A DNA stretch of 64,000 nucleotides from a phage: the NCBI GenBank assembly GCA_036253055.1, contig GCA_036253055.1_4124.1; one strand, 5' to 3'. The position numbers were made by a program, and so were the translations under genes. The notes under the pieces were generated by a model. It was not told where the DNA came from. It searched no databases and worked only from the letters and a program-made list of their open reading frames with translations. This document shows positions 33,522 through 54,251 of this stretch, in pieces (the first letter of the stretch is position 1; each line of letters begins with the position of its first letter).

Positions 33522-33551
33522 AGGGACTCCCTTGAAAATAATATCAATCAT

Positions 33552-33579
33552 ATAATATATGAATTGTATAAAAAGTCAA
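33552..33579 (-). promoter_or_regulatory. Sigma70-like promoter (TTGACT-N16-TATTAT) heading the family-B array
   Basis: Hexamers on minus strand ~25 nt upstream of SD/ATG at 33521. Confidence 0.5.
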
Positions 33580-33599
33580 TAACATTTTATTCGTAATAC

Positions 33600-33770
33600 C
33601 CCTTTATCGAAGTCGCTAAGGTTACCCGCCCTTTAGCCCCCTACGCATTTTGCCATAGTCCAATCCCTTTTATTTTAAAAAAGTCAAGGGATTACCTATG
33701 CATTTTTTTAACGCATTATTTTAAAAACGCCTTGACTTTTTTCTGAATCAGTACTAGATCCCTTTACGCA
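33600..33770. promoter_or_regulatory. Intergenic control region with 13-bp inverted repeat and repeated ACGCATT motifs
   Basis: AAAAAAGTCAAGG ...(~40 nt)... CCTTGACTTTTTT; ACGCATT-like motif four times. Confidence 0.4.
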
Positions 33771-33980
33771 TTAATCCTTCGTTACGCTAACGATTATCTG
33801 TGTATCCCCGTAGTCCTGCCATACTTCCACGCCATCCGTCGCCCTGGTTAGTCGTGCTGTCATCTGCTTAACAGTCTTAGGCTTTAGTGGAACCTGTTGC
33901 AGTACTGTACGCATAGCATCACTGACGTTATCATGTACGCCAGCAATAGTACCTAGAACGCTGTATACTGTATAGAACAT
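33771..33980 (-). CDS. Hypothetical protein (69 aa)
   Basis: SD AGGAGGG before ATG; perfect hairpin AGGCCGCTctctAGCGGCCT upstream. Confidence 0.55.
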   Translation of the reverse strand: MFYTVYSVLGTIAGVHDNVSDAMRTVLQQVPLKPKTVKQMTARLTRATDGVEVWQDYGDTQIIVSVTKD

Positions 33981-34048
33981 ATGTATGCCCTCCTGATATA
34001 GTTAAGGCCGCTAGAGAGCGGCCTATGATGTTTGGTGATGTGTAATGC

Positions 34049-34450
34049 TTACAGCCCTAAGATAGTGCGTGCTTCGTTACGTTCCGTCCATAGCTGCATG
34101 ATGTGAGCAAGTAAGTCCTTACTAATGTATCCGGTGTTCATAGCTTCACGGATAGATACATCATAAGCACCGAACCCCGTGCGAACGATACGCACATCAT
34201 TTAGGTTAGTGTTATAGATACCGCCAAGATCAACGGCTTCGAATACTGCATCAACTGAATACTCATTGTTACCATCGTTGAAGTTTTCTAGTGCAATAGT
34301 ATTGGATACCGCCCAACGTTTGCAGTTTCCAATGATGCGGCATTGTTCCGGTTGGAGAGTGCCATTACTTACAGCGTACTCCAGTGCATCTTTACCAAAA
34401 GTCCGAGCCAGTACTAAAACGTCAGCGAAGGAAGTGATTGAGAAGGTCAT
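34049..34450 (-). CDS. Hypothetical protein (133 aa)
   Basis: Start set at ATG 34450 (SD AAGGAG); track start 34483 lies in the cassette hairpin loop. Confidence 0.6.
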   Translation of the reverse strand: MTFSITSFADVLVLARTFGKDALEYAVSNGTLQPEQCRIIGNCKRWAVSNTIALENFNDGNNEYSVDAVFEAVDLGGIYNTNLNDVRIVRTGFGAYDVSIREAMNTGYISKDLLAHIMQLWTERNEARTILGL

Positions 34451-34468
34451 GATAAAACTCCTTAATTT

Positions 34469-34532
34469 AGGAGGGAGAACCATTTCCCCCTCTCTATGTA
34501 AAACATTATACTTGATTCTAAGTACAATGCAA
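34469..34532 (-). promoter_or_regulatory. Class-1 cassette: TTGCAT-N16-TATAAT + GTTTTACAT + hairpin
   Basis: Read on minus strand; hairpin abuts SD of gene 34049-34450. Confidence 0.6.
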
Positions 34533-34539
34533 GTACTTT

Positions 34540-34866
34540 TTACATTTTAATTCCTGGATTCAGGTAACGATGTGATCCGTATTCTGGATCGGTTTCGGTC
34601 CAGTACTGTAAATCGATAGTACCTTTAGCGTTAATCTTGTCTACCAGCTTATTCATCTTACTGTAGACTACTTCGCTAGGGATGTAGTGTAATCCTTTAT
34701 TATAGAAGTAGTGGTTAGCTTCACTATCGTTTAAGATATAGCGTGCACCGTTTGCGGTTTGTGCAACAATGAAAGAGTATTCTACTTCCCGATCATTACC
34801 ATCAACAGTAATGCGGTCGAAATTGGTACGGATGAAAGCTTTAACGATAGCGATTGAAGTACTCAT
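34540..34866 (-). CDS. Hypothetical protein (108 aa)
   Basis: SD AGGAG; cassette upstream. Confidence 0.6.
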   Translation of the reverse strand: MSTSIAIVKAFIRTNFDRITVDGNDREVEYSFIVAQTANGARYILNDSEANHYFYNKGLHYIPSEVVYSKMNKLVDKINAKGTIDLQYWTETDPEYGSHRYLNPGIKM

Positions 34867-34886
34867 GGTGAATCTCCTAACTTTGT

Positions 34887-34948
34887 GGGCCGTCGCACCA
34901 TTGCCGCCCTACGAGATACATTATTGCAGTACTGATATACTTTGTCAA
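34887..34948 (-). promoter_or_regulatory. Class-1 cassette (TTGACA-N17-ATAATG + GC-rich hairpin)
   Basis: Minus-strand promoter hexamers with AGTACT in spacer. Confidence 0.5.
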
Positions 34949-34966
34949 TACTTTTTCTATTAAAAT

Positions 34967-35182
34967 TTATTTACAGAACTGTAGCCCGACTGTGTTCGGA
35001 TAGTACACACATCTTTCACGCTTACCGCTAAACGCAGATATCCAGGATAATTTGTATGCCACTGGTTCCGGTGCAAGAGGATTATTTGAATAATCGAGAA
35101 CTTTAACAATTAAACGGTCCCCAACATACCAGCCAGTTGACTCTTTGATACGGTCGATAATTTCTTGTTTGGTTAACGCCAT
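34967..35182 (-). CDS. Hypothetical protein (71 aa)
   Basis: Start moved to ATG 35182 (MALTKQEI); track start is a GTG inside the cassette. Confidence 0.55.
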   Translation of the reverse strand: MALTKQEIIDRIKESTGWYVGDRLIVKVLDYSNNPLAPEPVAYKLSWISAFSGKRERCVYYPNTVGLQFCK

Positions 35183-35204
35183 TTTATATCTCGCTCTTTT
35201 GGAG

Positions 35205-35265
35205 GTGGGCTGCACTATTGCCGCCCTACGAGATACATTATCTCAGTACTGATATACTTTGTCAA
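35205..35265 (-). promoter_or_regulatory. Class-1-like cassette (TTGACA, weak -10, GC-rich hairpin)
   Basis: Near-duplicate of cassette at 34887-34948. Confidence 0.45.
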
Positions 35266-35289
35266 TACTTTTTTTGAAATAGTTTTGAG

Positions 35290-35440
35290 TACTGGCATTA
35301 CATCCACCAGCAGATAGTTACTCACCGTTATTAACTATCTTATAGATACTTCTCTGCACCCTGTGGGCTAGTTTTTGTCTATGCGTATATAATAGCAAAG
35401 GGACTGACCGGAGTCAATCCCTTTTTTTTATTCTTTTTTG
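35290..35440 (-). repeat. Intergenic repeat copy A (conserved element + intrinsic terminator)
   Basis: ~150-nt unit shared with copies at 37.2, 40.1 and 44.1 kb; terminator GGGACTGACcggaGTCAATCCC + T-run. Confidence 0.6.
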
Positions 35441-35641
35441 TTAGATGATTCTCCAATCTTCTACCAGGATTTTAATATACCGTACCAGTGATTCGAGTGA
35501 TTCCACTTCCCGATAATCGGTAGCCGTTTGCACTGTACAAGTACAGCCGATCAAGCCATTGCCAAGCTCTTTGATCTGTACATCGATGCAGTTGGCTTTT
35601 GCTTCATTCAGTACTGCAACCAATTCGTTAGCGATTGACAT
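35441..35641 (-). CDS. Hypothetical protein (66 aa)
   Basis: SD AGGAG; cassette upstream. Confidence 0.6.
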   Translation of the reverse strand: MSIANELVAVLNEAKANCIDVQIKELGNGLIGCTCTVQTATDYREVESLESLVRYIKILVEDWRII

Positions 35642-35661
35642 AATGTTTTACTCCTAAAGGT

Positions 35662-35722
35662 GCGGGAGAACTATTCCCCCGCTCTATGTAAAACATTATA
35701 CATTATCTTGTAGTACTGTCAA
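35662..35722 (-). promoter_or_regulatory. Class-1 cassette (TTGACA-N16-TATAAT + GTTTTACAT + hairpin CGGGGGAAtagTTCTCCCG)
   Basis: Read on minus strand. Confidence 0.6.
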
Positions 35723-35729
35723 ATAGTTT

Positions 35730-35987
35730 TTATGAAATATCTTCGATATAGTCGGCCCATGTCATTTGTTCAGTACTATCTAGTGCACCAGGATTATTTG
35801 GATCAAACCATTCGCCATCCCCTAAGTACATTGCAGCCGCTACCGCTTTATAGCCATTATAGGCGTTATTCCACTGCATAGCACGATAGATACGGCCTTT
35901 GATTGGTGTCTGTACTGGTAATGTTTTATGGTCTTCTACGTAGGCCATAGCTTGAGGATTTACCCGATATTGTGTGAACTGTTCCAT
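35730..35987 (-). CDS. Hypothetical protein (85 aa)
   Basis: Start moved to ATG 35987 (MEQFTQ; SD AAGGGGAA); promoter TTGACA-N17-TGTAAT upstream. Confidence 0.5.
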   Translation of the reverse strand: MEQFTQYRVNPQAMAYVEDHKTLPVQTPIKGRIYRAMQWNNAYNGYKAVAAAMYLGDGEWFDPNNPGALDSTEQMTWADYIEDIS

Positions 35988-36062
35988 TATGTTTCCCCTT
36001 GTAGTTAGTAAAGTTATTACATCAGTACTATCACGCATTGTCAATAGTACTGAAATAAAACT

Positions 36063-36287
36063 TTAGATTAGATTATTGATGCCGTTGATGGTAGACTCGC
36101 TTTCTTCTTTCTCCCATTGGCGGTAATACTTCCATGCTTCATGATAGGTGGCGATCAGTTCATCTTTTTGATCCTGAGTACATGCCAGTACTGAATCACT
36201 GTAAGCGGTGTTATAGATAGAATCAAATGATTTCTTCTCTTCTGCCAGGGTAGCTACTTCCCGCATCAGTTCATCAAAGTTAGCCAT
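36063..36287 (-). CDS. Hypothetical protein (74 aa)
   Basis: SD AAGGAG; cassette upstream. Confidence 0.6.
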   Translation of the reverse strand: MANFDELMREVATLAEEKKSFDSIYNTAYSDSVLACTQDQKDELIATYHEAWKYYRQWEKEESESTINGINNLI

Positions 36288-36306
36288 TTTAGTACTCCTT
36301 ATTAGT

Positions 36307-36363
36307 GGGGGAGGATATCTCCCCCTATGTAAAACATTATACTTTGTTTTACTTACAATGCAA
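36307..36363 (-). promoter_or_regulatory. Class-1 cassette (TTGCAT-N16-TATAAT + hairpin GGGGGAGgatatCTCCCCC)
   Basis: Read on minus strand. Confidence 0.6.
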
Positions 36364-36370
36364 GTACTTT

Positions 36371-36562
36371 TTAAATTTTATTTCCGATATAGTCCGGCCT
36401 GTTCTTTTCGGTCATACGCTTAAGCATTTTTTGCATATGGCTTATTGCTTGTAGTGTATCCTCTTCCAGCGATGAATCAAGATAATCAGGATCATTCTTC
36501 ACCTTACAATGATTATGATAGCGTAGTACTGCCAGTACTTTTTTAACTTCTTCTACTGTCAT
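36371..36562 (-). CDS. Hypothetical protein (63 aa)
   Basis: ATGA overlap with upstream gene, co-transcribed. Confidence 0.5.
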   Translation of the reverse strand: MTVEEVKKVLAVLRYHNHCKVKNDPDYLDSSLEEDTLQAISHMQKMLKRMTEKNRPDYIGNKI

Positions 36563-36831
36563 AATAAGTATTCCACTTCGTTTGCTTTCAGGTTAGTATC
36601 AATCATCAGTGGTTTTTTGTAGTCCACAAAACGATTAGTTTTCTCGATAGCGAAGCCCATATAATCCAGTTTGCTTACAGTACATTCATTCTTAAAAACT
36701 TCTTTCGCTGCATTGATGGCTGATTCAATTGATAACCGCCCATCTAAATTAATGTTACCAAATGATCCACCAGCAGAAGTAGGATTACCGTTCATATCTT
36801 TAATAATCATAGTAGCGGAGTAGCTGGACAT
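36559..36831 (-). CDS. Hypothetical protein (90 aa)
   Basis: SD AAAGGAAA; cassette upstream. Confidence 0.6.
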   Translation of the reverse strand: MSSYSATMIIKDMNGNPTSAGGSFGNINLDGRLSIESAINAAKEVFKNECTVSKLDYMGFAIEKTNRFVDYKKPLMIDTNLKANEVEYLL

Positions 36832-36852
36832 AATTTTGTTTCCTTTTATTGG

Positions 36853-36912
36853 TGGGGAGAGCTATTCTCCCCTTGATGTAAACTATTATACAGTACTGAT
36901 ATACTTTGTCAA
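36853..36912 (-). promoter_or_regulatory. Class-1 cassette (TTGACA-N16-TATAAT + AGTTTACAT + hairpin GGGGAGAgctaTTCTCCCC)
   Basis: Read on minus strand. Confidence 0.6.
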
Positions 36913-36915
36913 TAC

Positions 36916-37137
36916 TTAATTACGTTTAAAATGATATGTACCGTTATCATCCTGTACGCCCCATACTGATTTACCATCAACACCAGTGAAGCCGGATTGT
37001 AATTCAATATGGAAACCGTTAGCATCAACGACGAAAACTTTTTTATTTTCATCCCGATAGCATTGATATTCTTCACCTGCTTTAAATGCTGCATCATTCA
37101 GAAGATTTGAAGCGTGAACGCAGGTCATAGTAGTCAT
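36916..37137 (-). CDS. Hypothetical protein (73 aa)
   Basis: Start moved to ATG 37137 (MTTMTC, SD AAAGGAA); track N-terminus MFYIERG... is translated cassette. Confidence 0.6.
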   Translation of the reverse strand: MTTMTCVHASNLLNDAAFKAGEEYQCYRDENKKVFVVDANGFHIELQSGFTGVDGKSVWGVQDDNGTYHFKRN

Positions 37138-37160
37138 CGTCTTGATTCCTTTTAGTACCA

Positions 37161-37220
37161 GGGAGAACCATTTCCCCCTCTCGATATAAAACATTATACG
37201 CTCATTGAGATAGTTTGCAA
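37161..37220 (-). promoter_or_regulatory. Class-1 cassette (TTGCAA-N16-TATAAT + hairpin)
   Basis: Read on minus strand. Confidence 0.6.
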
Positions 37221-37224
37221 GTAC

Positions 37225-37360
37225 TTTTTATAAAATAGTTTTCAGTACTGAATACTTATATAATAGATACACTTCCGCACCCTATGGGTCAGTGAGTTAT
37301 CTCTCAATGAATATATAATAGCAAAGGGACTGACTGGAGTCAATCCCTTTTTTAATCTTT
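37225..37360 (-). repeat. Intergenic repeat copy B (conserved element + intrinsic terminator)
   Basis: Element CCGCACCCTATGGGTCAGTG; terminator GGGACTGACtggaGTCAATCCC + T6. Confidence 0.6.
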
Positions 37361-37361
37361 T

Positions 37362-37946
37362 TTATCGTGTTATAGTTATCGCGTTAACATCACGTTTTTT
37401 ATAGTACTGATTCCAGATATTGCGGGTTAAACCGTAATCAAGTACTTTAATCAAGCCGTTGCGATCCTGGCCGATATTCTGTTTTCTGATATCTCTTATC
37501 GTTAGTGTGGATAATGTATCATCAACGTGATTGAGAGCATCAGCGAAATGGTGATGGCGTTCTACCGTATTACGTTTAATATTGTACTTTAACTCATTGC
37601 ACGCGTTTACATGCTTTACACTGCCTTTGCTTGCAGTACTCAAACGATCCATAACAATAAACAGATTATCAGGATCGCATAAATGCATATGCACTTTAGC
37701 AAAGTACTGTTTAAGGTGCGGACGGTCATAATCTAAAAAATTCCATACCTTACATTCAGTTTCATTTTGTTCTACACCCGCATCACAATTCGCGACCTTA
37801 ATCACTAACCGATCATTTAAAGCGAATACAATACGGGAAGAACCCGCACCGACGATCTCCAGTCCAGCTAACCGACAAGCTGAAAGGATCTCTTTGTTGG
37901 TTTCCATTGCATGAAGTGAACGGATGAATTTAGTATAGTTACGCAT
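37362..37946 (-). CDS. Putative protein-kinase-like protein (194 aa)
   Basis: Gly-rich loop VGAGSSRIVF, beta3 Lys in LVIKVA, catalytic-loop-like DIRKQN, DFG-like DYG; SD AAGGAG; start at ATG 37946. Confidence 0.5.
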   Translation of the reverse strand: MRNYTKFIRSLHAMETNKEILSACRLAGLEIVGAGSSRIVFALNDRLVIKVANCDAGVEQNETECKVWNFLDYDRPHLKQYFAKVHMHLCDPDNLFIVMDRLSTASKGSVKHVNACNELKYNIKRNTVERHHHFADALNHVDDTLSTLTIRDIRKQNIGQDRNGLIKVLDYGLTRNIWNQYYKKRDVNAITITR

Positions 37947-37977
37947 TGTGTTGACTCCTTGAGTTAATGAAACTATA

Positions 37978-45188: not shown

Positions 45189-45207
45189 TTCATATTCCTT
45201 AATTAGT

Positions 45208-45467: not shown

Positions 45468-45472
45468 ATTAA

Positions 45473-45745: not shown

Positions 45746-45796
45746 GGTATAATCCCCAATATAAGCGGCCTAAATCGACCGCTAACGATGTTTTGA

Positions 45797-46066
45797 TTAA
45801 TAGGTGTATGGTTGACGCTCAAACAATGAATAGACGTTATACGCCCCGCTTATGGGCTTCGCTGGTAAATCAATTTTATATTGTTCACGCTTAAAGATAA
45901 TAAAACGGCAATTGTTTTTAACATCAAAATTGATTGAACGTTCCAGGAGTTTACCATCGTGCACAAATACAAGATAACCGCTTGGTACTTGTTTTGTAGA
46001 ACTGGTTGCAACCATAGACCGACGAACATGTGTACCTGCATCGATTAAAGTACTGATATTTTTCAT
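45797..46066 (-). CDS. Hypothetical protein (89 aa)
   Basis: SD AAGAGGAT; 7-bp inverted repeat ATGCAGA-N15-TCTGCAT upstream. Confidence 0.55.
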   Translation of the reverse strand: MKNISTLIDAGTHVRRSMVATSSTKQVPSGYLVFVHDGKLLERSINFDVKNNCRFIIFKREQYKIDLPAKPISGAYNVYSLFERQPYTY

Positions 46067-46146
46067 TTTACTATCCTCTTAAGTTGATTTAATTTCTTTC
46101 TCCTATGCAGACACTATATCAAAGTATCTGCATAAAGTAAAGCTAA

Positions 46147-46470
46147 TTAAAGATCTTTTTTGCGTTTAACATTCTGTACAGTACAATGCAACGGGATATT
46201 AAGATCATTGCACAAACGATAGAGGGAGGTTTCAACAGTATCAAGCCCGTCTACTGATTCCTTTAAGAGTGATACCGCCGTTTGTTGATATGCATCCTCA
46301 TAGCCATAAGTAAATGATTCAACCGCCAGATCATTCAAGCCGTTATCCAGTTCAACGCTTACATGACAAGAATGATAAGTATTGCCATATGAATCAGTCC
46401 AACGTTTACCGTCAACATTGATTGCATGGATTGCAGCCAGGGAAACGGTGTTGATGATAGTTTTAGCCAT
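46147..46470 (-). CDS. Hypothetical protein (107 aa); paralog of 39086-39409
   Basis: SD AAGGAA; class-2 promoter upstream. Confidence 0.6.
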   Translation of the reverse strand: MAKTIINTVSLAAIHAINVDGKRWTDSYGNTYHSCHVSVELDNGLNDLAVESFTYGYEDAYQQTAVSLLKESVDGLDTVETSLYRLCNDLNIPLHCTVQNVKRKKDL

Positions 46471-46561
46471 TTTAGTATTCCTTAAATTAATATGTGTCGT
46501 CTTGATAAAATCTATTATGCCAGTACTATCAAACTATGTCAATAGTACTGTGATAATATTT

Positions 46562-46774
46562 TTACTTACTTTCTTTCGCTGCTTTATATGTTGCCACTGC
46601 CATAACCACATCAGCACGAACAAAGTTTTTAACCGTGTCACTGTAATAATTGATCGCATCATCTATATCTGCGAACGTCCGATACATACCGCACCAAGAT
46701 ACTTTATAACCTTCTTTCACTTCTACCAGTTTAACGATAGTCTTGTTAACTTTGATTTTAGTAATGATAGCCAT
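46562..46774 (-). CDS. MAII-family small protein (70 aa)
   Basis: Start moved to ATG 46774 (MAIITKIK, SD TGAGGAAAC); track start MVLP is the cassette hairpin. Confidence 0.55.
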   Translation of the reverse strand: MAIITKIKVNKTIVKLVEVKEGYKVSWCGMYRTFADIDDAINYYSDTVKNFVRADVVMAVATYKAAKESK

Positions 46775-46794
46775 TTTAGTTTCCTCATTATCAG

Positions 46795-46852
46795 GGAGAA
46801 CCATTTCTCCCCTTGATGTAATGTATTATACTTTATTCGATTTACTTTGCAA
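46795..46852 (-). promoter_or_regulatory. Class-1 cassette (TTGCAA-N16-TATAAT + hairpin)
   Basis: Read on minus strand. Confidence 0.6.
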
Positions 46853-46861
46853 GTACTTTTT

Positions 46862-47089
46862 TTAATTTAATTCATCCAGGCAAAGGATACGCTCAACGCC
46901 CAAATCAGTTAAACTAATCGACGGCACTTGATAGGTTTCAATGTATGCTACACTTGCCCACTGACCGAACTCATTAACGGCCCAGGTATTCATTGCATTT
47001 TGCAATTCCGCACCTGCCTTGTTAGTAATGACTGCAACTACTTGTTCGTTGCCAGTAGTACCAGATACGCGAGTAATGATAATAGCCAT
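46862..47089 (-). CDS. MAII-family small protein (75 aa)
   Basis: Start moved to ATG 47089 (MAIIITRV, SD AAAGGAA). Confidence 0.55.
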   Translation of the reverse strand: MAIIITRVSGTTGNEQVVAVITNKAGAELQNAMNTWAVNEFGQWASVAYIETYQVPSISLTDLGVERILCLDELN

Positions 47090-47112
47090 TGTTTTGATTC
47101 CTTTGATTTGGA

Positions 47113-47172
47113 AGGAGAACCGTTTCCCCCTCTCGATGTAAAACATTATACGCTAATCTCTTAATCGTGCAA
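47113..47172 (-). promoter_or_regulatory. Class-1 cassette (TTGCAC-N16-TATAAT + hairpin)
   Basis: Read on minus strand. Confidence 0.55.
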
Positions 47173-47216
47173 GTACTTTTTATTACTTTTTGCAAAATAC
47201 TTTAAACGCTCTCAAT

Positions 47217-47307
47217 CGCATTCTAACGACCTTAACGCCACCAGCTAGGGCGATGTATCAGATAATCAGTTTAATGCGTTAGAATCGATTCTAGGCGGTG
47301 CTGGTGG
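47217..47307. repeat. Interleaved inverted repeats (CGCATTCTAACG / CGTTAGAATCG and CCACCAGC / GCTGGTGG)
   Basis: Two inverted-repeat pairs arranged A-B...A'-B' between a terminator and the next promoter. Confidence 0.5.
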
Positions 47308-47324
47308 ACTGGAATACTACAGAC

Positions 47325-47352
47325 ACAAAAAAGCCCACTGTTTAAGGTGGGC
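47325..47352 (-). terminator. Intrinsic terminator (GCCCACcttaaacaGTGGGC + T6)
   Basis: Hairpin then TTTTTT on minus strand, 20 nt after stop at 47375. Confidence 0.7.
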
Positions 47353-47374
47353 TAGTGATTCAGTACTTTAATTG

Positions 47375-47857
47375 TTATGCTTCAACTTTGCGATGAGCTT
47401 CGATCCATTCCTCGCGAGTCATACCGCTTTCTTTGATAGCGTCCAGTACTACCGCAATGCAGTTACCGCGTACAGGAATCAAATGTTCTTCCCCGTTATC
47501 AAGGACAACAGTAACACGTTCTTGAATCCATTTTTTAGGCTTAGATTCCGGCTTATCTTCACCGTACTTAACCGCCAGGGCTTTATGTGCCATTTCAATA
47601 ACCACTTCCAGATCTAAACCAGACACCGCCGCCTGAATACTTTCTATTGTTGCTTGCAGTTCTGCTTCACGGGCTTTTTTCTGTTCTTCCAGTTCTGCTA
47701 CCTTTTTGGCTTGTAGTTCTTTCGCTTCACTGTAAGCAATGTTAAAATTGTTGCGTACTGCTTTCATGGTATCATTATCCAGGTCAGCCAGCAATTCAGC
47801 AGCAATCACAGTATCGTTAGAAATCAGTGCTTTCAGAAATGATTTTACATTAGCCAT
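47375..47857 (-). CDS. Hypothetical coiled-coil protein (160 aa)
   Basis: Start moved to ATG 47857 (MANVKSF, SD GAGGAT); Lys/Glu-rich heptad-like segment; strong terminator downstream. Confidence 0.6.
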   Translation of the reverse strand: MANVKSFLKALISNDTVIAAELLADLDNDTMKAVRNNFNIAYSEAKELQAKKVAELEEQKKAREAELQATIESIQAAVSGLDLEVVIEMAHKALAVKYGEDKPESKPKKWIQERVTVVLDNGEEHLIPVRGNCIAVVLDAIKESGMTREEWIEAHRKVEA

Positions 47858-48049
47858 TTTATAAATCCTCAATTAAAGTTTAAGTTAGTTTATCAAAGTT
47901 TGTTTGACGTGTCCAGTTTTTCATTCGACTTACTGGCGGTCTACTTAATGTTCCCCGTCTTGATGTAATACATTCTACGCTTTTCCCTGGTAATGTCAAC
48001 TACTTTTTTAAAACTATTTTCAAAGTATACCAGTACTACGATACTACAA

Positions 48050-48078
48050 AAACAAAAAAGCCCACTGTATAAGTGGGC
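48050..48078 (-). terminator. Intrinsic terminator (GCCCACttatacaGTGGGC + T6)
   Basis: Near-duplicate of terminator at 47325; follows stop at 48097. Confidence 0.7.
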
Positions 48079-48096
48079 TAGTGATTCAGTACTATA

Positions 48097-48396
48097 TTAT
48101 AAACAATTAATTACGCCAGTGAATGTAACTTTCTCTGTATCCATTACAGTAACCGAACCGCGTTTACTTTTTGCATCGTAATAGATGGTCGTGCTACCCT
48201 GATCATCTTCTTCATGGTACGGGCCATTAGCAAACATTGCAGGGGCCAGTTCCAGGGATTTGGTAACGATCTCAGCCGTTTCCTCGTTAGTCATTGCAAC
48301 AGTGCACTGAATGAATTTTTCTTTCTGTACATCAACGGAAGCGTTAACAGCGAAAGAGGAAACAGATAAAGCCAGGGCGATGATTGCAGTTTTCAT
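48097..48396 (-). CDS. Putative secreted/periplasmic small protein (99 aa)
   Basis: N-terminal signal-peptide-like MKTAIIALALSVSSFAVNA; SD AAAGGAT; own promoter and terminator. Confidence 0.6.
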   Translation of the reverse strand: MKTAIIALALSVSSFAVNASVDVQKEKFIQCTVAMTNEETAEIVTKSLELAPAMFANGPYHEEDDQGSTTIYYDAKSKRGSVTVMDTEKVTFTGVINCL

Positions 48397-48418
48397 TTGT
48401 ATATCCTTTGTTAGTACT

Positions 48419-48474
48419 AGGGAGTATTCCCGATTAGATGTAAAACATTATACGCGTTTAAAAACTATTATCAA
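48419..48474 (-). promoter_or_regulatory. Class-1 cassette (TTGATA-N16-TATAAT + GTTTTACAT)
   Basis: Read on minus strand; weak hairpin. Confidence 0.5.
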
Positions 48475-48507
48475 GTACTTTAATATAAAAGTATTTGAAA
48501 AAAAGTC

Positions 48508-48640
48508 TTGACAACTGCATCCAGTACTGGCATAATATCTACATAAAGACGAGATAGTCACTAACCCACAGGGTGCATAGATCCGTCTATTAAATGATTC
48601 AGTACTGCAAAATAAAGGGGATCGTTTGATCCCCCTGATT
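48508..48640 (+). ncRNA. Candidate plus-strand small RNA (class-2 promoter + CACTAACCCACAGGGTGCA element + terminator hairpin)
   Basis: TTGACA 48508-13, CATAAT 48531-36, element 48559-77, hairpin GGGGATCgtttGATCCCC 48617-34; no ORF; opposite to all local genes. Confidence 0.35.
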
Positions 48641-48641
48641 A

Positions 48642-48863
48642 TTACTTAGTAAGATATAAACAAAAATCACCTTTCTTTGATACTCCGCAAGTGTAACGCG
48701 ATGAATAGTTAGAAACGTCTTGTACTTCTGCAATGACGAGCGTATCATCATTTAACTCATCGCAAAAACATACTGCGGGATCTTCTACGCCGATATTGTC
48801 GGCATGTTCCCGCATAGATTTAACCAGTGCTTCAAGCTGGGAAAGAGTAGTGATATTAGCCAT
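48642..48863 (-). CDS. Hypothetical protein (73 aa)
   Basis: SD AAGGAG; cassette upstream. Confidence 0.6.
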   Translation of the reverse strand: MANITTLSQLEALVKSMREHADNIGVEDPAVCFCDELNDDTLVIAEVQDVSNYSSRYTCGVSKKGDFCLYLTK

Positions 48864-48882
48864 TGTAAAACTCCTTATTAGT

Positions 48883-48941
48883 GGGGAGAACCATTTCCCC
48901 CTTGATGTAAACTATTATATAGTACTGGAAACTATTTGCAA
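48883..48941 (-). promoter_or_regulatory. Class-1 cassette (TTGCAA-N16-TATAAT + hairpin)
   Basis: Read on minus strand. Confidence 0.6.
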
Positions 48942-48947
48942 GTACTT

Positions 48948-49136
48948 TTAATTAAATTCCATAAAATCATTTTCAACGTGCACAACAATCTGATTATTTT
49001 TAAAGGACGCAGAAAACTCTATACAATCATAAACCGCTTTTTCTGTTACCAGACTATGAGCACCAATCGGATTAATTGGGGATTGAATTGTTTCAATCTC
49101 GTTACCCTGCTCATTTACAATTAAAATATTAAACAT
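48948..49136 (-). CDS. Hypothetical protein (62 aa)
   Basis: SD AGGAG; promoter TTGCAA-N16-TATAAT. Confidence 0.55.
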   Translation of the reverse strand: MFNILIVNEQGNEIETIQSPINPIGAHSLVTEKAVYDCIEFSASFKNNQIVVHVENDFMEFN

Positions 49137-49210
49137 TGTCGTTACTCCTGGATAGTGTTAACTCGATGTAAACAATTATACAGTACTGGAAACTAATTGC
49201 AAGTACTTTT

Positions 49211-49414
49211 TTAATTTAATTGCTTTAAAACAAAATCAAAGACACCACGCACATCATTGATCATCGCCTGGCGGTTAGCAGGTAACGCATCAGGATCGCC
49301 ACTATCCCAGGCATTAATGAAGCCACTTAAATCATGGAATACTTTATTCCGTAACCCGATCAACTGCAATTCTTTTTCTTCAAGCTCTTTGATACGTTCA
49401 ATTAAATCACTCAT
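49211..49414 (-). CDS. Hypothetical protein (67 aa)
   Basis: Start moved to ATG 49414 (MSDLIERIK, SD GAGGAT). Confidence 0.5.
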   Translation of the reverse strand: MSDLIERIKELEEKELQLIGLRNKVFHDLSGFINAWDSGDPDALPANRQAMINDVRGVFDFVLKQLN

Positions 49415-49431
49415 TAGATAATCCTCAGTAC

Positions 49432-49716
49432 TCAATTGTAAGATCCACATCGTTCGCAGTAGTGTTCATCTTCCTCATCTTCTACCACTTGCCCGATGAA
49501 ATGATCTACTTTCGCTTTCAGGTTATTATAATCGTTTTCTACTTCCTGTAAACGTTCCTGGTAGTATTCCAGGGCTTCAACAAATGCAGCTTCCTCTGAT
49601 TTTGCTTGCATCGATAAATTCATCCCGCGTGTTTCATCATATAGCCAAAAACCATCGGTGCATTCAGTTATAGATAACGTGTTAGTCAGTACTTTACTAT
49701 TAATTACTTTGCTCAT
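49432..49716 (-). CDS. Hypothetical protein (94 aa), Cys-containing C-terminus
   Basis: SD GAGGAT; C-terminal HYCERCGSYN. Confidence 0.55.
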   Translation of the reverse strand: MSKVINSKVLTNTLSITECTDGFWLYDETRGMNLSMQAKSEEAAFVEALEYYQERLQEVENDYNNLKAKVDHFIGQVVEDEEDEHYCERCGSYN

Positions 49717-49735
49717 TAGATAATCCTCATTAAAG

Positions 49736-49794
49736 GCGGGAACTATTCCCGCTCTCGATATAAAGTATTATACGTTAATCTAATTACTTTGCAA
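49736..49794 (-). promoter_or_regulatory. Class-1 cassette (TTGCAA-N16-TATAAT + hairpin GCGGGAAtagTTCCCGC)
   Basis: Read on minus strand. Confidence 0.6.
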
Positions 49795-49801
49795 GTACTT
49801 T

Positions 49802-50039
49802 TTAGTGCTTTTTATAAAACATCTCAGCGGTGATATTTTTACCCGTTGGTTGTACTTTATCCAGGATCTTTTGGTGTGCACTACGCCCGAAAGAATAAGA
49901 ACCGTAAACCGTTAGCCAGTAGTCGCCATTTTGGTTTACATGTACCGCACAATAAGGAACGCCCCGCGAATCGTCACCAATGAAGTGTGATACTGTACCC
50001 GTTACGTTTGGCGTTGTAGTTTTGATTTGTTCGATCATT
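49802..50039 (-). CDS. Hypothetical protein (78 aa)
   Basis: Start moved to ATG 50039 (MIEQIK, SD AGGAG) downstream of hairpin GGCGGGGAAtggTTCCCGCC. Confidence 0.5.
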
Positions 50040-50096
50040 TCTCTTACTCCTGGGATATAGGCGGGAACCATTCCCCGCCATTGATTCAGTACTGAA

Positions 50097-50708
50097 TTAA
50101 TATTCGATAGATTCTACTACATCGTCGATAACGTTAAATTGATATTCGTTACCCTCAATCAGTCCTACAATGTTTTCAGTAGTAAACTGGTCTTCATAAG
50201 CATTTTCTAAATCACGGTACAGCTTACAAGATAATTCTCGGATAGTATCAGTCAGTAAGTTTTCCAGATCCTCAGCCAATGCAGCCTGTTTTACAGTTAA
50301 ATCAGTGTAGCGAGTATCAACGCAACCGCCTACCGTGTTTTCGTGAGCGTAGCGTGATTGGGAACGTTCTACACTCATTTCCAAATCATCTTCGTTCAAC
50401 AGGTGACGGATGGAACGATATTTCGTTAACGCCTTAACCTTGCGTAAAAACTTCTCAGCGTCAACGTGGTCAGTACTGATTGATGCACCGTCACCTTGCG
50501 ACCAAAAACCACTGTATTGCAATTCAGCTTCATCTATGCCGTATTCTGGCAGTACTGTTTCTTTATAGTATTCCAGTACTGATTCAGCAAAGAAATTATC
50601 CTCACTTGCACGTTCCCGATCCCGAACCAGTTCGATAGCCGCCGCTTGTTGTTCTGCGTTCAGTTCAGAAAAATCCATAACGAAAGTAGTAGTAGTGATA
50701 GTTTTCAT
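50097..50708 (-). CDS. Hypothetical acidic protein (203 aa)
   Basis: SD TGAGGGT; tandem promoters with structured element X copy 2 between them. Confidence 0.65.
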   Translation of the reverse strand: MKTITTTTFVMDFSELNAEQQAAAIELVRDRERASEDNFFAESVLEYYKETVLPEYGIDEAELQYSGFWSQGDGASISTDHVDAEKFLRKVKALTKYRSIRHLLNEDDLEMSVERSQSRYAHENTVGGCVDTRYTDLTVKQAALAEDLENLLTDTIRELSCKLYRDLENAYEDQFTTENIVGLIEGNEYQFNVIDDVVESIEY

Positions 50709-50778
50709 TTTGTAACCCTCATTCAGTAGTTGATGTAAGTATTATACGCTTTTAAAAACAATTGTCAAACTATTTTAT

Positions 50779-50886
50779 CAGGGGAGTTTTTCGTGTGCCT
50801 TACTCCTGGGCTACTTAACGGGAAGTTACTTATTTCGTTCCCCGTCCTGATGTAAAACATTATACGCCTTTAAACATAGTTTGCAA
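50779..50886 (-). ncRNA. Candidate structured leader/sRNA element X (copy 2)
   Basis: About 90% identical to 39968-40074; frame-disrupting differences argue against a peptide. Confidence 0.35.
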
Positions 50887-50931
50887 GTACTTTTTGAAAA
50901 TAGTTTTTATCTCTTTCATATAGATACATTC

Positions 50932-51001
50932 CCGCACCCTATGGGCTATCGCCTTGTGTCCGGCTTGTAAGTATTATCTCACTAAGCCGGATAACGGTCA
51001 A
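50932..51001 (-). promoter_or_regulatory. Class-2-like promoter (TTGACC..TAATAC) + conserved CCCATAGGGTGCGGG element + hairpin CCGGCTT-N17-AAGCCGG
   Basis: Same promoter-to-element arrangement as 42498-42567. Confidence 0.4.
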
Positions 51002-51007
51002 GTACTT

Positions 51008-51274
51008 TTATTCAAGTACTGCAATCTTTTTAGTACTGTACACAGTAACGCGGTTGCCCTTGCGGTCGTGCTTTATTTCTACCACGCGACGCGATACACT
51101 ATCAGGACGCTTTAAAGCAGATAGCCAGTACTGAATTGATCGGGCTGTACTTTGCTTTACTACGGCCCAACGTTTACCACGTTCAGATTGTACGCCCATA
51201 TCTTTAAACGTTGCCCCGTCCTGGCGTGCTGCAATCCGAGCTAGTTCACGCGTCGCAAAATATGTAATAGTCAT
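51008..51274 (-). CDS. Hypothetical protein (88 aa); paralog of 38591-38986
   Basis: Start moved to ATG 51274 (MTITYFATREL, SD AGGGGT). Confidence 0.55.
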   Translation of the reverse strand: MTITYFATRELARIAARQDGATFKDMGVQSERGKRWAVVKQSTARSIQYWLSALKRPDSVSRRVVEIKHDRKGNRVTVYSTKKIAVLE

Positions 51275-51357
51275 GCTGTTACCCCTATCGTTGATGTACA
51301 AAAAGAACTTTATTATAAAGTACTATCACCGTGCAATAGTACTTTTAATCTATTCTC

Positions 51358-51597
51358 TTACATTCCAACCATCGCCGCACGGATCGCAGTAGTACTATAC
51401 TTAAAGCCGTCCGGTGTTTTATCTTGTCCAGTCTGTTCTAAAAATAGCATCATATGACGGGCCGCATCATTACGATTAGTGTTAGCGGCAATAAAGTCCT
51501 GGGCCAACCGGTATAATGATTCGTCGTTATTAATCCAAAGGCTTACATTCCATTGAGTTTTGTTTTTGTGTCCTAAGAACATTTTTGATTTAGCCAT
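51358..51597 (-). CDS. Hypothetical protein (79 aa)
   Basis: Start moved to ATG 51597 (MAKSKMF, SD AAGAGGAT). Confidence 0.55.
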   Translation of the reverse strand: MAKSKMFLGHKNKTQWNVSLWINNDESLYRLAQDFIAANTNRNDAARHMMLFLEQTGQDKTPDGFKYSTTAIRAAMVGM

Positions 51598-51618
51598 TTT
51601 TAAATCCTCTTTATTATA

Positions 51619-51677
51619 GTGGGGAACTATTCCCCACCTGATGTAAAACATTATACGCTTTTAAACTTAGTTTGCAA
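51619..51677 (-). promoter_or_regulatory. Class-1 cassette (TTGCAA-N16-TATAAT + hairpin GTGGGGAAtagTTCCCCAC)
   Basis: Read on minus strand. Confidence 0.65.
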
Positions 51678-51691
51678 GTACTTTATTAAAC

Positions 51692-52054
51692 TTATTCGTA
51701 AATCTTGCCACTGTCAGCCCATACCAGGAAACGAGGCATATTATCCCATGCATCTTGTTTTAAGTTTAAGCCGTGTAATACTTCTGTACTTTCCATTCCT
51801 GGTACTGGCTTGCTATACACTGCAAACATTTCGCCCATGTACTGATAAGCCATCGTTAAATCAGTCTGGATCATCTTATGGATCATTGCATCCAGCATTG
51901 CAGTAGCGGCATACTGTTCACGCTTAAGCGGCAGCATTGCAATCAATTCCCGATAAGCTGCAATGTGAATCCGTACAGTCTCAGCGGGAAGATCTTTCAT
52001 CTCTTCACGGAAAGAAACCAGGTTAAGCATGATAGTATTGATTTGAGTCGCCAT
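51692..52054 (-). CDS. Hypothetical protein (120 aa)
   Basis: Start moved to ATG 52054 (MATQINT); first gene of the middle module. Confidence 0.55.
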   Translation of the reverse strand: MATQINTIMLNLVSFREEMKDLPAETVRIHIAAYRELIAMLPLKREQYAATAMLDAMIHKMIQTDLTMAYQYMGEMFAVYSKPVPGMESTEVLHGLNLKQDAWDNMPRFLVWADSGKIYE

Positions 52055-52077
52055 CGTTTTAATCTCTTTTAAAGTGT

Positions 52078-52137
52078 AGCGGGAAGTGTTCCCGCTCTCG
52101 ATGTAAAACATTCTACACCTTTCCCAATACTTTGCAA
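52078..52137 (-). promoter_or_regulatory. Class-1 cassette (TTGCAA-N16-TAGAAT + hairpin AGCGGGAAcacTTCCCGCT)
   Basis: Read on minus strand; most upstream cassette of the module. Confidence 0.6.
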
Positions 52138-52879
52138 GTACTTTCTACAAATACTTTTAAAATAGTTTTCTTTCTATATAGGGGAACTATCTTTCAGTAC
52201 TGCAACCATCCAGGGGAACTATCTTTCTATATAGTAGTACTATGATTCAGTACTGAATCAATCCACCAAATCATCCCGATACCCCGTAAAACGGCCTCAG
52301 ACGCATTCTAACGCATTAATACACCTAAGCTATACATTTGCACCATTCCAATCATTCCAGGGCTTTACAGGCCGTTTAAACGCGTTAAATTATTTTCAAT
52401 TATTTTGTTTTTAGCTATTGACTCAGTACTAAAAAAGCGTATAATTACTACATAGACGCGAGAAAGCGGATACCCCAGGGGGTGGGAAGATCCGTCCAAA
52501 ATTCAAGATATAAAAAAAGGATACACTCCCGCACCCTAGCAGGTTAACGCACTTTCTCAGTACTGAATTATAGTACCATAGTCCGGCCCAGGATGGCAAG
52601 CAAATTAATTAAAACTTTTTTCATCCAGGGTATTGCTTTATTTTTCCAGTACTGTATAATAGTTCCATCAAGTCGAGAAAGACTCAAGCCCACCGGGTGC
52701 ATAGTTACGCCCAAAATTCAGTACTGAAAAAATTTTTAAAAATATCCGTCCAGGCCGTTGACATTGCCCCCAGTTTATAAGATAATGATTCCAGATTCAG
52801 AAAAATCTAACTCCAGATACTGCGGGGAAACTATCCCCACGCGGTAGGGGAACTATTGGAAAAAACAAAATAAAATTTT

Positions 52880-53040
52880 GATTTAGCCGTCTATACTTCC
52901 AGACGTGTAACCATCTAGCCGTTTAGCCGTCCAAACGTCTAGCAATCCAGCCATCCAGAAATCTAGCCGTTTAGCCGTCTAGATGGATAGCCATCTTTAC
53001 TTCCAGACTTCTGGAGGGCTAGACATATCTACGTCCAAAA
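52880..53040. repeat. GC-richer block of short direct repeats (TAGCCGTTTAGCCGTC x2, CCATCCAG, TCCAGAC) with small hairpins
   Basis: Visible direct repeats; AGATGGatagCCATCT and CCAGActTCTGG palindromes. Confidence 0.5.
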
Positions 53041-53193
53041 TCCACCCAGGGTAACTACGCCCAAAATCCGTCAGTACTATACCATAGATCTATCTTTTGA
53101 AAGGGAGTATTCAGTACTGTCATCATAGCCCTCACTATGTTACCCTAGGAGGATGAAGACTATCATGTAGTACTGAATACTGTTAGAGGGAAT

Positions 53194-53213
53194 CCACCAG
53201 CACAAGCTGGTGG
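53194..53213. repeat. Perfect palindrome CCACCAGCacaaGCTGGTGG
   Basis: 8-bp arms; same CCACCAGC motif recurs at 47.24 kb, 35.30 kb and 40.12 kb. Confidence 0.6.
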
Positions 53214-53700
53214 CATAATGCTTTAGATTAAAATCAGTACTGACACCATTCTGTTAATATCAGTACTGTTATTACGATTTTCATATGAGGTTCAAAAAGA
53301 TGTACCACCACAGGAGGAACTATCTTTTCTGTACTGTCTCACGACAGGAGGTAGAGTAAATGAATTGTTCGCAGCAACTCATCACCCTATGTAGAACATT
53401 ATACAGTACTGAATCATAATGTCAATAGCTTTCTTTCATTATTCAGTACTGAAATCGTATAATCTGTATCGCTACAAAACTCATTATATCCCACAAATCC
53501 TATATGTCCCAACGTAAATTTCAACTTTCGAAGATCCAACTTTTATTTCATAGGTACTCCAAAATTTTTAGGATCGAGATTTAGGATGGAGTACTAACCA
53601 ACTTTTTGCTGGAGCCTCAAGGGGTAATTGAATTTTACCCCGAAGGGTAAAAGGGTAATTGAAATTAAGGTGAAAGTAATAATTCAGTACTAATCATTGC

Positions 53701-53729
53701 GTGATTACTTTTGATTACATTTGATGTAA
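53701..53729. repeat. Iteron cluster 1: TGATTAC-like repeats at exact 10-bp spacing (x3)
   Basis: TGATTACTTT TGATTACATT TGATGTAATT. Confidence 0.55.
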
Positions 53730-53867
53730 TTTGCAAAATGGAAAAGGAGCTTGGAAACTACAAAGTACGGCAGACTTCCTCTGCCTACTTAGTGGCATAT
53801 CAGTACTGCTACGTTCTTGATTAAACGTGAACATTCCTGTACTCTAGTACTCACTACTGATCACTAC

Positions 53868-53929
53868 AGTGATTATAAATGATTACTTAAATGTTTATAT
53901 ATGATTACTTATGACTACCTATGATTACG
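53868..53929. repeat. Iteron cluster 2: ATGATTAC(TT) repeats (x5, 10/22-bp spacing)
   Basis: gtgATTATaaATGATTACTT...ATGATTACTTATGACTACCTATGATTACgg. Confidence 0.55.
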
Positions 53930-53978
53930 GGGTTTAGCCTGGGGAGAATCCTAGTGATCGCATTTGTCCAGGCTGAAT

Positions 53979-54001
53979 TTTAACATATGCAACATATGTT
54001 A
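53979..54001. repeat. Perfect 10-bp-arm palindrome TTAACATATGcaaCATATGTTAA
   Basis: Directly downstream of the last family-C gene; possible operator or terminator. Confidence 0.55.
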
Positions 54002-54044
54002 AAGCCTGTATAATGCTTCCACTACGGAGCTTCCCCTAGCTATA

Positions 54045-54236: not shown

Positions 54237-54251
54237 AGTATTCTCTATTAA

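Follow-up and report, generated by a model that had tools for sequence, protein, structure and literature searches.

Short DNA words that occur far above chance, lie in coding DNA in all reading frames and carry a synonymous cost are known from cellular genomes. The best known are Chi (read by RecBCD), the DNA uptake sequences (DUS) and uptake signal sequences (USS), and the FtsK-orienting polar sequences (KOPS), which are asymmetric 8-12-mers with strand polarity and known readers. The Dam site GATC, together with SeqA and MutH, is a short palindrome at sub-kilobase spacing that controls promoters via its methylation state. Phage operators are limited in number, span 14-20 bp and occur only in regulatory DNA; examples are the OR sites of lambda CI, from which PR is repressed and PRM is activated (from approximately -42), and the sites of SPO1 TF1 on early promoters. 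In E. coli, the SlmA-binding sequence GTGAGTACTCAC requires G, T and a purine 5' of an AGTACT core (PMC3020112). Here, we analyzed the palindromic hexamer AGTACT in a 64,000-nucleotide stretch of phage DNA (NCBI GenBank assembly GCA_036253055.1, contig GCA_036253055.1_4124.1), which is referred to at its full length as the window. The window is approximately 92-98% identical to Asteriusvirus genomes (121Q, PBECO4, G17, phAPEC6 and fEgEco12), which belong to Escherichia jumbo phages of the Rak2-like group. AGTACT was classed as a functional over-represented genomic word; its excess is very large and conserved, and comes at a cost to the phage.

AGTACT was found 256 times in the window, compared to 18.6 +/- 4.2 times (maximum 28) in dinucleotide-preserving shuffles, and ranked first among the 4096 hexamers with an over-representation of approximately 12-fold. 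The initial annotation had called the word pervasive between positions 33,552 and 54,040, and had named a ratio of observed to expected near 1, after control for composition, as the outcome that would speak against a special role. This interval contains 128 copies, where first-order Markov simulations gave 5.9 +/- 2.3 (maximum 13); the enrichment is therefore stronger than had been claimed, and the ratio was far from 1 in the window as well. The example sites it listed were placed correctly to within a few bases (the true positions are 52249, 52559, 52720, 53113, 53405 and 53445). When clustered at 70% identity over 40 flanking nucleotides, the 256 sites fell into 226 independent contexts, and only 33 had a flank at least 75% identical to that of another site. 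With 226 unrelated contexts, duplicated promoter cassettes and paralogous genes cannot account for the count, and a dispersed repeat or duplicated cassette, which would share extended flanks, was rejected. An artefact of composition or shuffling was ruled out, as the shuffles and Markov models yielded only 6-19 expected copies. A palindrome avoided because of restriction would show a ratio well below 1, and the values obtained were approximately 12 for the window and 7.6 genome-wide in 121Q. The premise of the initial annotation that the phage depletes restriction-type palindromes held true, as approximately 25 GC-containing 6-bp palindromes and the tetramer GCGC were present at zero copies; across the window and its relatives, approximately 25-32 of the 64 6-bp palindromes were missing.

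The majority of the sites in the window (160 of 256) lie within open reading frames (ORFs), where 17.5 would be expected (approximately 9-fold enrichment). They occupy the three reading frames 56, 39 and 65 times and are spread along the length of the genes. The metagene profile of AGTACT was approximately flat, save for the promoter zone and a mild excess directly after stop codons. Codon choice in 121Q was shifted toward the word in three separate tests. Ser-Thr dipeptides were written AGT-ACT in 306 of 587 cases (52%), compared to 90 expected from codon usage; Val-Leu was written GTA-CTN 224 times, compared to 104 expected; and Tyr was encoded by TAC in 76% of the contexts in which this completes AGTACT, compared to 29% overall. 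The use of all three frames, together with these tests, indicated that selection targets the DNA sequence and not the protein. Between the window and 121Q (96.4% identity), AGTACT remained intact at 91.7% of sites, compared to 84.8% for hexamers of the same composition. Codon alignments of 26 core genes of 121Q and an Erwinia Eneladusvirus phage (68% nucleotide identity) showed 15 of 33 AGTACT sites at the identical position, whereas 14.5% of all hexamers and 12.9% of hexamers of the same composition were preserved. Preservation between genera was thus approximately three times that of control hexamers, and AGTACT sites are under purifying selection. The word therefore shows two marks of a genomic signal word, strong genome-wide over-representation and selection at synonymous sites.

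The enrichment extends across the genome and across related genera. The complete 121Q genome (348 kb) contains 903 copies of AGTACT, compared to 118 expected (7.6-fold), and each 10-kb bin was enriched (11-65 copies compared to 3.3), including those with replication, structural and tail genes, with a peak over the terminal-repeat region. AGTACT ranked first or second among hexamers in four genera (Asteriusvirus, Alcyoneusvirus, Mimasvirus and Eneladusvirus), all of which infect Enterobacterales. The whole genome was covered for 121Q only; sampled regions of the other three gave 119 copies compared to 16.9 expected in RaK2 (Alcyoneusvirus), 253 compared to 16.7 in GAP32 (Mimasvirus), and 83 compared to 13.8 in the Erwinia phage pEa_SNUABM_19 (Eneladusvirus). 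The enrichment was absent from PA5oct, a more distant Pseudomonas relative (4 copies compared to 17 expected), and from T4, in which the word was depleted (4 compared to 14). A 100-kb sample of E. coli K-12 contained 6 copies compared to 23 expected, a 4-fold depletion that corresponds to 0.06 per kb, and AGTACT was 40-100 times denser in the DNA of the phages than in this host sample.

Recognition of the word appears to be exact. The 18 sequences that differ from AGTACT by one mismatch occurred at 0.5-2.2 times expectation, compared to 7.6 times for AGTACT itself, and all six positions count. Since no neighbor was strongly depleted (the lowest value was 0.5), a mutational drive of the very-short-patch (VSP) type is argued against; such a mutation and repair drive was rejected because there was no depleted donor among the 18 neighbors and the variants that replaced the word between strains were varied. 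The flanks carry little information beyond favoring C at -1 and, symmetrically, G at +1; C or T was preferred at -1, and G was the rarest base at this position (18 of the 256 window sites). In non-coding DNA the flank logo reached approximately 1 bit at the +/-1 positions, and in unconstrained DNA the site extends to TTCAGTACTGAA. The perfect palindrome, the symmetric flanks and this extended form look like the target of a symmetric reader of duplex DNA.

The density of the word was related to the layout of the genome using fEgEco12 as the reference for the genome ends. The termini of this phage were determined experimentally and include a direct terminal repeat of 20,993 bp (PMC13070987). When the window was aligned to fEgEco12, the left physical end (position 1) fell at window position 53,789 and the inner edge of the repeat (20,993) at approximately 33,614, and the flagged interval 33,552-54,040 is therefore essentially the terminal repeat. 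AGTACT occurred at 4-10 per kb within the repeat and at 0 per kb directly outside it. The repeat contains approximately 60 small early genes, most of which have their own σ70 promoter, and a 1.9-kb non-coding block at the genome end; nearly all genes of the window up to 58.1 kb are carried on the minus strand. The main regions with AGTACT are as follows.

33614-53789, no strand assigned: direct terminal repeat (approximately 20 kb), sigma70 early-gene region; 126 AGTACT, approximately 6 per kb, the highest density in the window.
52112-54040, no strand assigned: non-coding block (approximately 1.9 kb) at the physical left genome end; 19 AGTACT, mostly as the 12-bp palindrome TTCAGTACTGAA.
1-18200, no strand assigned: tightly packed early-type genes; 69 AGTACT, 68 of them within ORFs (approximately 6 expected).
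53790-58100, no strand assigned: array of genes of approximately 60 amino acids adjoining the repeat; 28 AGTACT, several of which give a ...TAC TAA stop directly before the next ATG.
58100-64000, plus-strand genes: genes for RCC1-repeat proteins; 16 AGTACT (2 expected).

The 28 copies of the array adjoining the repeat comprise 26 between 54,040 and 58,100 and the sites at 53,802 and 53,846. The counts over the RCC1-repeat genes show that the enrichment is also present outside the early region, on genes of the opposite orientation. No AGTACT was found at the genome termini, as mapped via fEgEco12, that could point to a terminase or nickase. The window also contains three tandem arrays of small paralogous genes, at 54045-58089 (approximately 60 amino acids), 29185-33551 (approximately 70-75 amino acids) and 24-18183 (approximately 120-200 amino acids). 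They are densely packed with overlapping stop and start codons, and in the array at 54-58 kb AGTACT often gives rise to the TAC TAA stop that directly precedes the next ATG.

Placement at promoters was assessed with a stringent set, TTGNNN-N15-18-TATAAT on the minus strand of the repeat, which returned 30 promoters, 28 of them with a spacer of 16 bp. AGTACT was present in 25 of these, in close agreement with the initial annotation, which had placed it at essentially every promoter cassette; five promoters lacked it. In 24 of the 30, the word occupied one or both of two exact registers. In register I (17 promoters), AGTACT starts 27 nt before TATAAT and abuts a TTGCAA -35 element with an overlap of 1 nt (AAAAAGTACT-TGCAA). 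In register II (12 promoters), it starts 7 nt before TATAAT (TTGACA-N9-AGTACT-G-TATAAT) and lies within the spacer at approximately -19 to -14. Both registers, 20 bp apart, were occupied in five promoters. The promoter sites are dyad-symmetric and centered near -38.5 and -16.5, so that pairs are separated by approximately two helical turns. One example of each arrangement is given here.

53398-53425, minus strand: type II promoter with consensus TTGACA, 9 nt, AGTACT, G and TATAAT; the word starts 7 nt before TATAAT.
51650-51687, minus strand: type I promoter with an AAAAGTACT-TGCAA -35 region followed by GCG-TATAAT; the word starts 27 nt before TATAAT.
49175-49212, minus strand: composite promoter with both sites 20 bp apart, AGTACTTGCAA-N9-AGTACTGTATAAT.

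The exact composite AGTACTTGCAA-N9-AGTACTGTATAAT was also found in RaK2, 121Q and other contigs of approximately 350 kb in IMG/VR, and the promoters of the Cronobacter phage GAP32, as well as those of RaK2, have AGTACT at the same two offsets. Dyad-symmetric sites that overlap promoter elements, as expected of an operator, are thus present in 24 of the 30 repeat promoters. The word is not itself a sigma70 core element (-35, -10, extended -10 TG or UP element), given its position at approximately -19 to -14 or -40 to -35; in register II it places T at -14 and G at -13, and is therefore not an extended -10 element. The 160 sites within ORFs and the five promoters without the word also contradict this assignment. 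Outside the early promoters and the mild excess after stop codons, no link was found between AGTACT and gene starts or stops, a T4-like late promoter (TATAAATA) or a TGAAACG promoter. The initial annotation had further described the enrichment as one at regulatory positions. Promoters and non-coding DNA are indeed enriched, but the enrichment is not specific to them, as the count within ORFs demonstrates. On the minus strand between 33614 and 52111, many early promoters are followed by TATAATAGTTTACAT, a conserved stem-loop in the 5' untranslated region (GGGGAGA-ATAG-TTCTCCCC and variants) and then a Shine-Dalgarno sequence. This promoter-leader cassette appears as a reusable unit, for example at 41485-41540, 40862-40917 and 43593-43650.

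GAP32 has an equivalent of the non-coding block, with 21 AGTACT in 1.9 kb of unrelated sequence. The consensus promoter at approximately 53,398-53,425 (minus strand) faces approximately 1.3 kb without a convincing ORF (52112-53400), which could be a long non-coding leader RNA. Short direct repeats are also present in the block, namely GAAAGATAGTTCCCC and GGACGGCTAAACGGCTAGAT-like units at approximately 52.9-53.0 kb.

Between the left early-type genes and the repeat, AGTACT is replaced over long stretches by the variant AGTACA, which is oriented by strand in two modules.

18200-27650, minus strand: module A; no AGTACT at 18.2-25.6 kb and 9 sites at 25.6-27.6 kb, where the oriented variant persists.
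27968-33550, plus strand: module B; no AGTACT at 29.2-33.5 kb and 9 sites at 28.1-29.1 kb; all genes are on the minus strand.

In module A, AGTACA occurs 43 times on the minus (coding) strand of the 18.2-25.6 kb segment and never on the opposite strand; the copies use all three frames and have varied surroundings. When all one-sided variants over 18-28 kb were counted, 54 were on the minus strand and 1 on the plus strand. The one-sided variants of module B numbered 11 on the plus strand and 0 on the minus strand from 27,968 to 33.5 kb (10 and 0 from 29.2 to 33.5 kb). The polarity of AGTACA flips between 27,645 and 27,968, and the direction of the genes does not change. The pattern of both modules is kept in homologues at 75-78% nucleotide identity, and these modules are the only such oriented region in the 348-kb 121Q genome. 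The independence of the polarity from the direction of transcription makes a role at the level of mRNA unlikely; a possible explanation is a DNA process with polarity, for instance translocation or the direction of forks. AGTACT itself cannot be polar because it is a palindrome, and strict polarity is confined to its AGTACA variant in the two modules. At approximately 28 kb, GC skew changes from approximately -0.18 to -0.06 and AT skew from approximately -0.03 to -0.18, which coincides with the flip of AGTACA polarity.

We tentatively favor, with less than even confidence, the reading that AGTACT is a positively selected, clade-specific word of duplex DNA for a phage-encoded reader of twofold symmetry, which would mark phage DNA and serve as an operator at early promoters. 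Such a reader would probably be a protein encoded by the phage, and its binding, rather than catalysis, would be what matters. The much higher density of the word in phage DNA than in the host sample would direct the reader to phage DNA, so that AGTACT may act as a sequence-based mark of 'self' on DNA that is not hypermodified. Asteriusvirus DNA was cut as predicted by ten ordinary enzymes, ScaI not among them (PMC13070987), and this normal cutting indicates that the DNA carries no global base hypermodification. With sites of the terminal repeat overlapping the upstream edge of the -35 element and the spacer before the -10 element, the same reader would be an operator-type regulator of early transcription by sigma70. 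As to the direction of regulation, a spacer site in promoters with consensus TTGACA would most likely cause shut-off, and the abutting site in promoters with the weaker TTGCAA -35 element would be positioned to permit class-II-type activation. For a binding experiment, TTCAGTTCTGAA is proposed as the contrast duplex to TTCAGTACTGAA. The initial annotation had suggested a recognition site for a phage factor, which is the best-supported reading on the grounds of six sharp positions, symmetric flanks, synonymous selection and conservation across genera. Its framing around promoters and regulation was too narrow, as the enrichment is genome-wide, covers coding DNA of every functional class and is shared by four genera.

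Several observations weigh against this reading. A search of the 150 window ORFs with Pfam revealed no helix-turn-helix, ribbon-helix-helix, nuclease or methyltransferase domain; the domains found were RCC1, a DksA/TraR zinc finger, a ParE-like domain, GNAT and domains of unknown function only. The nine early proteins in common with GAP32 all belong to PHROGs of unknown function. For an 88-amino-acid candidate protein encoded at 51011-51274 (minus strand), no fold was identifiable: the AlphaFold model had a predicted local distance difference test (pLDDT) score of 72 and a predicted template modeling (pTM) score of 0.36, and no Foldseek match to the PDB was better than E = 0.025. Two further properties of an operator, a cognate regulator and confinement to regulatory DNA, were not found, as no DNA-binding domain was detectable among the 150 window ORFs and most sites are coding. 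The information is almost wholly contained in six positions, a profile seen more typically for restriction or modification enzymes than for transcription factors. AGTACT occurs at approximately 10-12 per kb both in promoter DNA and in other non-coding DNA of the repeat, with no excess at promoters, so that shared ancestry of the cassettes, together with the small number of unconstrained positions in them, could explain the fixed registers instead of operator function. No helical phasing of neighboring sites was detected beyond the promoter pair at 20-24 bp, and a symmetric binder leaves the strand-oriented AGTACA of modules A and B unexplained.

The 88-amino-acid protein is strongly basic and has 21 homologues, all within the genus. 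It forms a phrog_8127 paralogue pair with the product of 38594-38995 (minus strand); the two have in common a FATRExAR...RWAV domain at the N terminus and a HDRKGNRVTVYS motif at the C terminus. The terminal repeat also encodes, at 38277-38528 (minus strand), a protein with a ParE-like toxin domain (Pfam E = 3e-10), which is kept in GAP32.

An alternative that we regard as unlikely is that AGTACT is the target of an orphan DNA methyltransferase of the clade, with the methylated or hemimethylated word acting as a signal like Dam-methylated GATC. Its roles would be strand discrimination after replication, timing of early promoters or recognition by a SeqA-like reader, and protection from ScaI or Eco255I would be a by-product. 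The specificity at six positions with little information in the flanks is as in restriction and modification enzymes, although the extended TTCAGTACTGAA preference is less expected of a methyltransferase. The clade encodes an N6-adenine methyltransferase of the Dam family (PF05869) and a C5-cytosine methyltransferase (PF00145), and sites every 0.4-1 kb resemble the spacing of methyl-directed processes; however, no partner resembling MutH or SeqA is listed in the 121Q annotation. Methylation has been reported for RaK2 DNA, but in a CpG context (PMC3622015), and AGTACT contains no CpG. The survival of a ScaI-type site in a genome that otherwise purges palindromes also fits methylation. Protection alone, however, selects for no additional sites, and a modification that renders the sites insensitive to restriction, which the initial annotation had raised as its alternative, would, even if real, explain tolerance of the word but not a 12-fold enrichment.

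It is quite unlikely, in our judgment, that a DNA-transaction enzyme of the phage (a primase, a T4-type topoisomerase II or a nickase) prefers AGTACT, or the half-word AGTAC, as its site. A primase would use an unusually long recognition sequence and start at GTA with a pppAC primer, in the manner of T4 and T7, and the form A|GTAC|T would suit the symmetric 4-bp staggered cut of a topoisomerase II. A need for sites at a workable spacing on both strands would favor a palindrome. Among the alternatives, this one accounts best for the even spacing and for the flip in polarity: the sites are evenly spread with little dependence on gene boundaries, the density of 1-2.5 AGTACT per kb in late genes is on the scale of Okazaki fragments, and where the palindrome is absent the variant is strictly oriented by strand, with a flip at approximately 27.8 kb that is independent of transcription. 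AGTAC would then lie on the lagging-strand template of forks that diverge from approximately 27.8 kb. Genes for a primase, a gp41-like helicase and a topoisomerase II are present in the phage, and supercoiling would have to be relieved locally at strong early promoters. However, known phage primases require only trinucleotides, and selection of a hexamer is without precedent; T4 and PA5oct possess homologous enzymes and show no enrichment of AGTACT. Neither an origin signature nor a non-coding gap is present at 27.8 kb, a single flip in the genome would yield the divergent pattern by chance in 50% of cases, and the genome termini do not lie at AGTACT.

A second word distinguishes these phages from the host. 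GCGC was absent from the window (56 expected), from the whole of 121Q (291 expected) and from the samples of RaK2, GAP32 and Eneladusvirus. PA5oct contained 110 copies compared to 50 expected, the T4 count was normal, and the E. coli K-12 sample contained 7.2 per kb. The absence could reflect extreme avoidance of restriction, or a phage nuclease might recognize GCGC in order to degrade host DNA. Together, the contrasts in AGTACT and GCGC separate the sampled phage DNA from host DNA almost completely. It is conceivable, if distinctly doubtful, that the two words form a code whose content alone tells self from host in Rak2-like phages without hypermodified DNA. AGTACT would then bring a phage factor (for transcription, protection or replication) to phage DNA as soon as the terminal repeat enters the cell, and a nuclease of the phage would destroy host DNA by attacking GCGC (zero in approximately 350 kb of phage DNA, approximately 7 per kb in the host). 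In the AGTACA modules that adjoin the repeat, half of the word would serve to mark a polar process (an origin or a direction of translocation).

Capture of a host factor seems very unlikely. By this account, AGTACT recruits or titrates an enterobacterial DNA-binding protein, and the phage accumulates its sites in the way that it accumulates Chi for RecBCD. The 4-fold under-representation of the word in the E. coli sample looks as if it had a function or cost there, and enrichment is seen in four genera, all with hosts among the Enterobacterales, but not in the Pseudomonas relative. The phage hoards another word read by the host, E. coli Chi GCTGGTGG, with 29 copies in 121Q compared to approximately 2 expected. 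AGTACT is also the core of the SlmA site (PMC3020112). Nonetheless, the known candidates fail, and T4, which infects the same host, is depleted in AGTACT. SlmA needs G, T and a purine 5' of AGTACT, and G at -1 is the rarest base in the phage sites; GTNAGTACTNAC had 0 matches in the window, and GAGTACTC occurred 0 times in the window and at 3 of the 903 sites in 121Q. The LexA SOS box (CTGT-N8-ACAG) had 0 matches in the window, with AGTACTGTATAAT fitting its left half only, and TrpR-type sites had 0 matches in the window. The Chi octamer GCTGGTGG is distributed over the two strands of 121Q in 18 and 11 copies, compared to 1.1 and 0.7 expected (approximately 16-fold), and CTGGTG and TGGTGG are also among the top hexamers of RaK2 and the Erwinia phage. 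This excess of Chi may shield the linear genome from RecBCD.

An action of AGUACU in RNA, for example as a site of processing or decay by an endoribonuclease comparable to T4 RegB on GGAG, is highly improbable. Transcription covers nearly all of the DNA, the strong promoter at 53.4 kb is upstream of the non-coding block, and UUCA-GUAC-UGAA could fold as a small tetraloop hairpin. However, nothing would require a single-strand signal to form a perfect palindrome flanked symmetrically, the oriented variants change from the coding strand in module A to the non-coding strand in module B, and sites directly upstream of a -35 element fall outside the transcripts of those promoters. Finally, the view that AGTACT is no independent feature, but part of the sigma70 consensus or a by-product of cassettes, paralogues and composition, is effectively refuted: the promoter cassettes are visibly related with AGTACT at fixed offsets, and AAAAAGTAC resembles a proximal UP-element, but the coding sites, the 226 contexts, the synonymous bias in unique core genes, the enriched late-gene regions of four genera, the five promoters without AGTACT and the 6-19 copies expected by models all contradict it.

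AGTACT was not described in the genome papers of RaK2, CBB, Sharanji and fEgEco12, nor was it found by a full-text search for AGTACT with jumbo phage, which did not extend to the GAP32 paper. If the word is a mark of 'self', it would offer a testable answer to how a phage with unmodified DNA directs its machinery to, or spares, its own genome, and the discrimination of self from host DNA is still unsolved for T5 (10.64898/2026.04.02.716235). AGTACT provides a handle for finding a new sequence-specific reader of DNA and aids the dissection of early-promoter control in a little-understood clade used for phage therapy. High AGTACT with zero GCGC is a diagnostic signature of the clade, and synonymous recoding or engineering of Rak2-like phages may delete functional sites.

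In its behavior, AGTACT is closest to Chi, DUS and KOPS. It shares with them its excess, its presence in all frames of coding DNA and its synonymous cost, and it is likewise lineage-specific and rare in foreign DNA, so that it would mark 'self'. Unlike them, it is a viral 6-bp perfect palindrome that is densest on a terminal repeat, with polarity only in the AGTACA variant of two modules. It resembles the operators of lambda CI and SPO1 TF1 in having dyad-symmetric sites on sigma70 early promoters, paired approximately two helical turns apart, but differs in its approximately 900 six-bp sites per genome, most of which lie in ORFs, and in that no cognate regulator was found. The SlmA site shares the central hexamer within a dyad-symmetric site, and the phage sites differ from it at the flanks (C or T at -1). 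With Dam GATC, AGTACT has in common a short palindrome, enzyme-like precision and a Dam-family methyltransferase encoded by the clade; GATC, however, is not strongly enriched genome-wide, and a SeqA- or MutH-like partner is not annotated in 121Q. The first-step-transfer repeat of T5 is similar in being a long direct terminal repeat with sigma70 pre-early or early promoters on unmodified DNA (bioRxiv 10.1101/866236; 10.64898/2026.04.02.716235), although no word of the AGTACT type has been described in it, and two-step injection is not known from Rak2-like phages. The final comparison is with the avoidance of restriction sites, which concerns the same class of sequence, as AGTACT is the ScaI/Eco255I site, but the sign is opposite: short palindromes are usually seen as liabilities to be purged, and this phage purges most of them, yet this one is enriched 12-fold and kept at approximately 900 copies per genome, at a cost in codon choice, in four genera.

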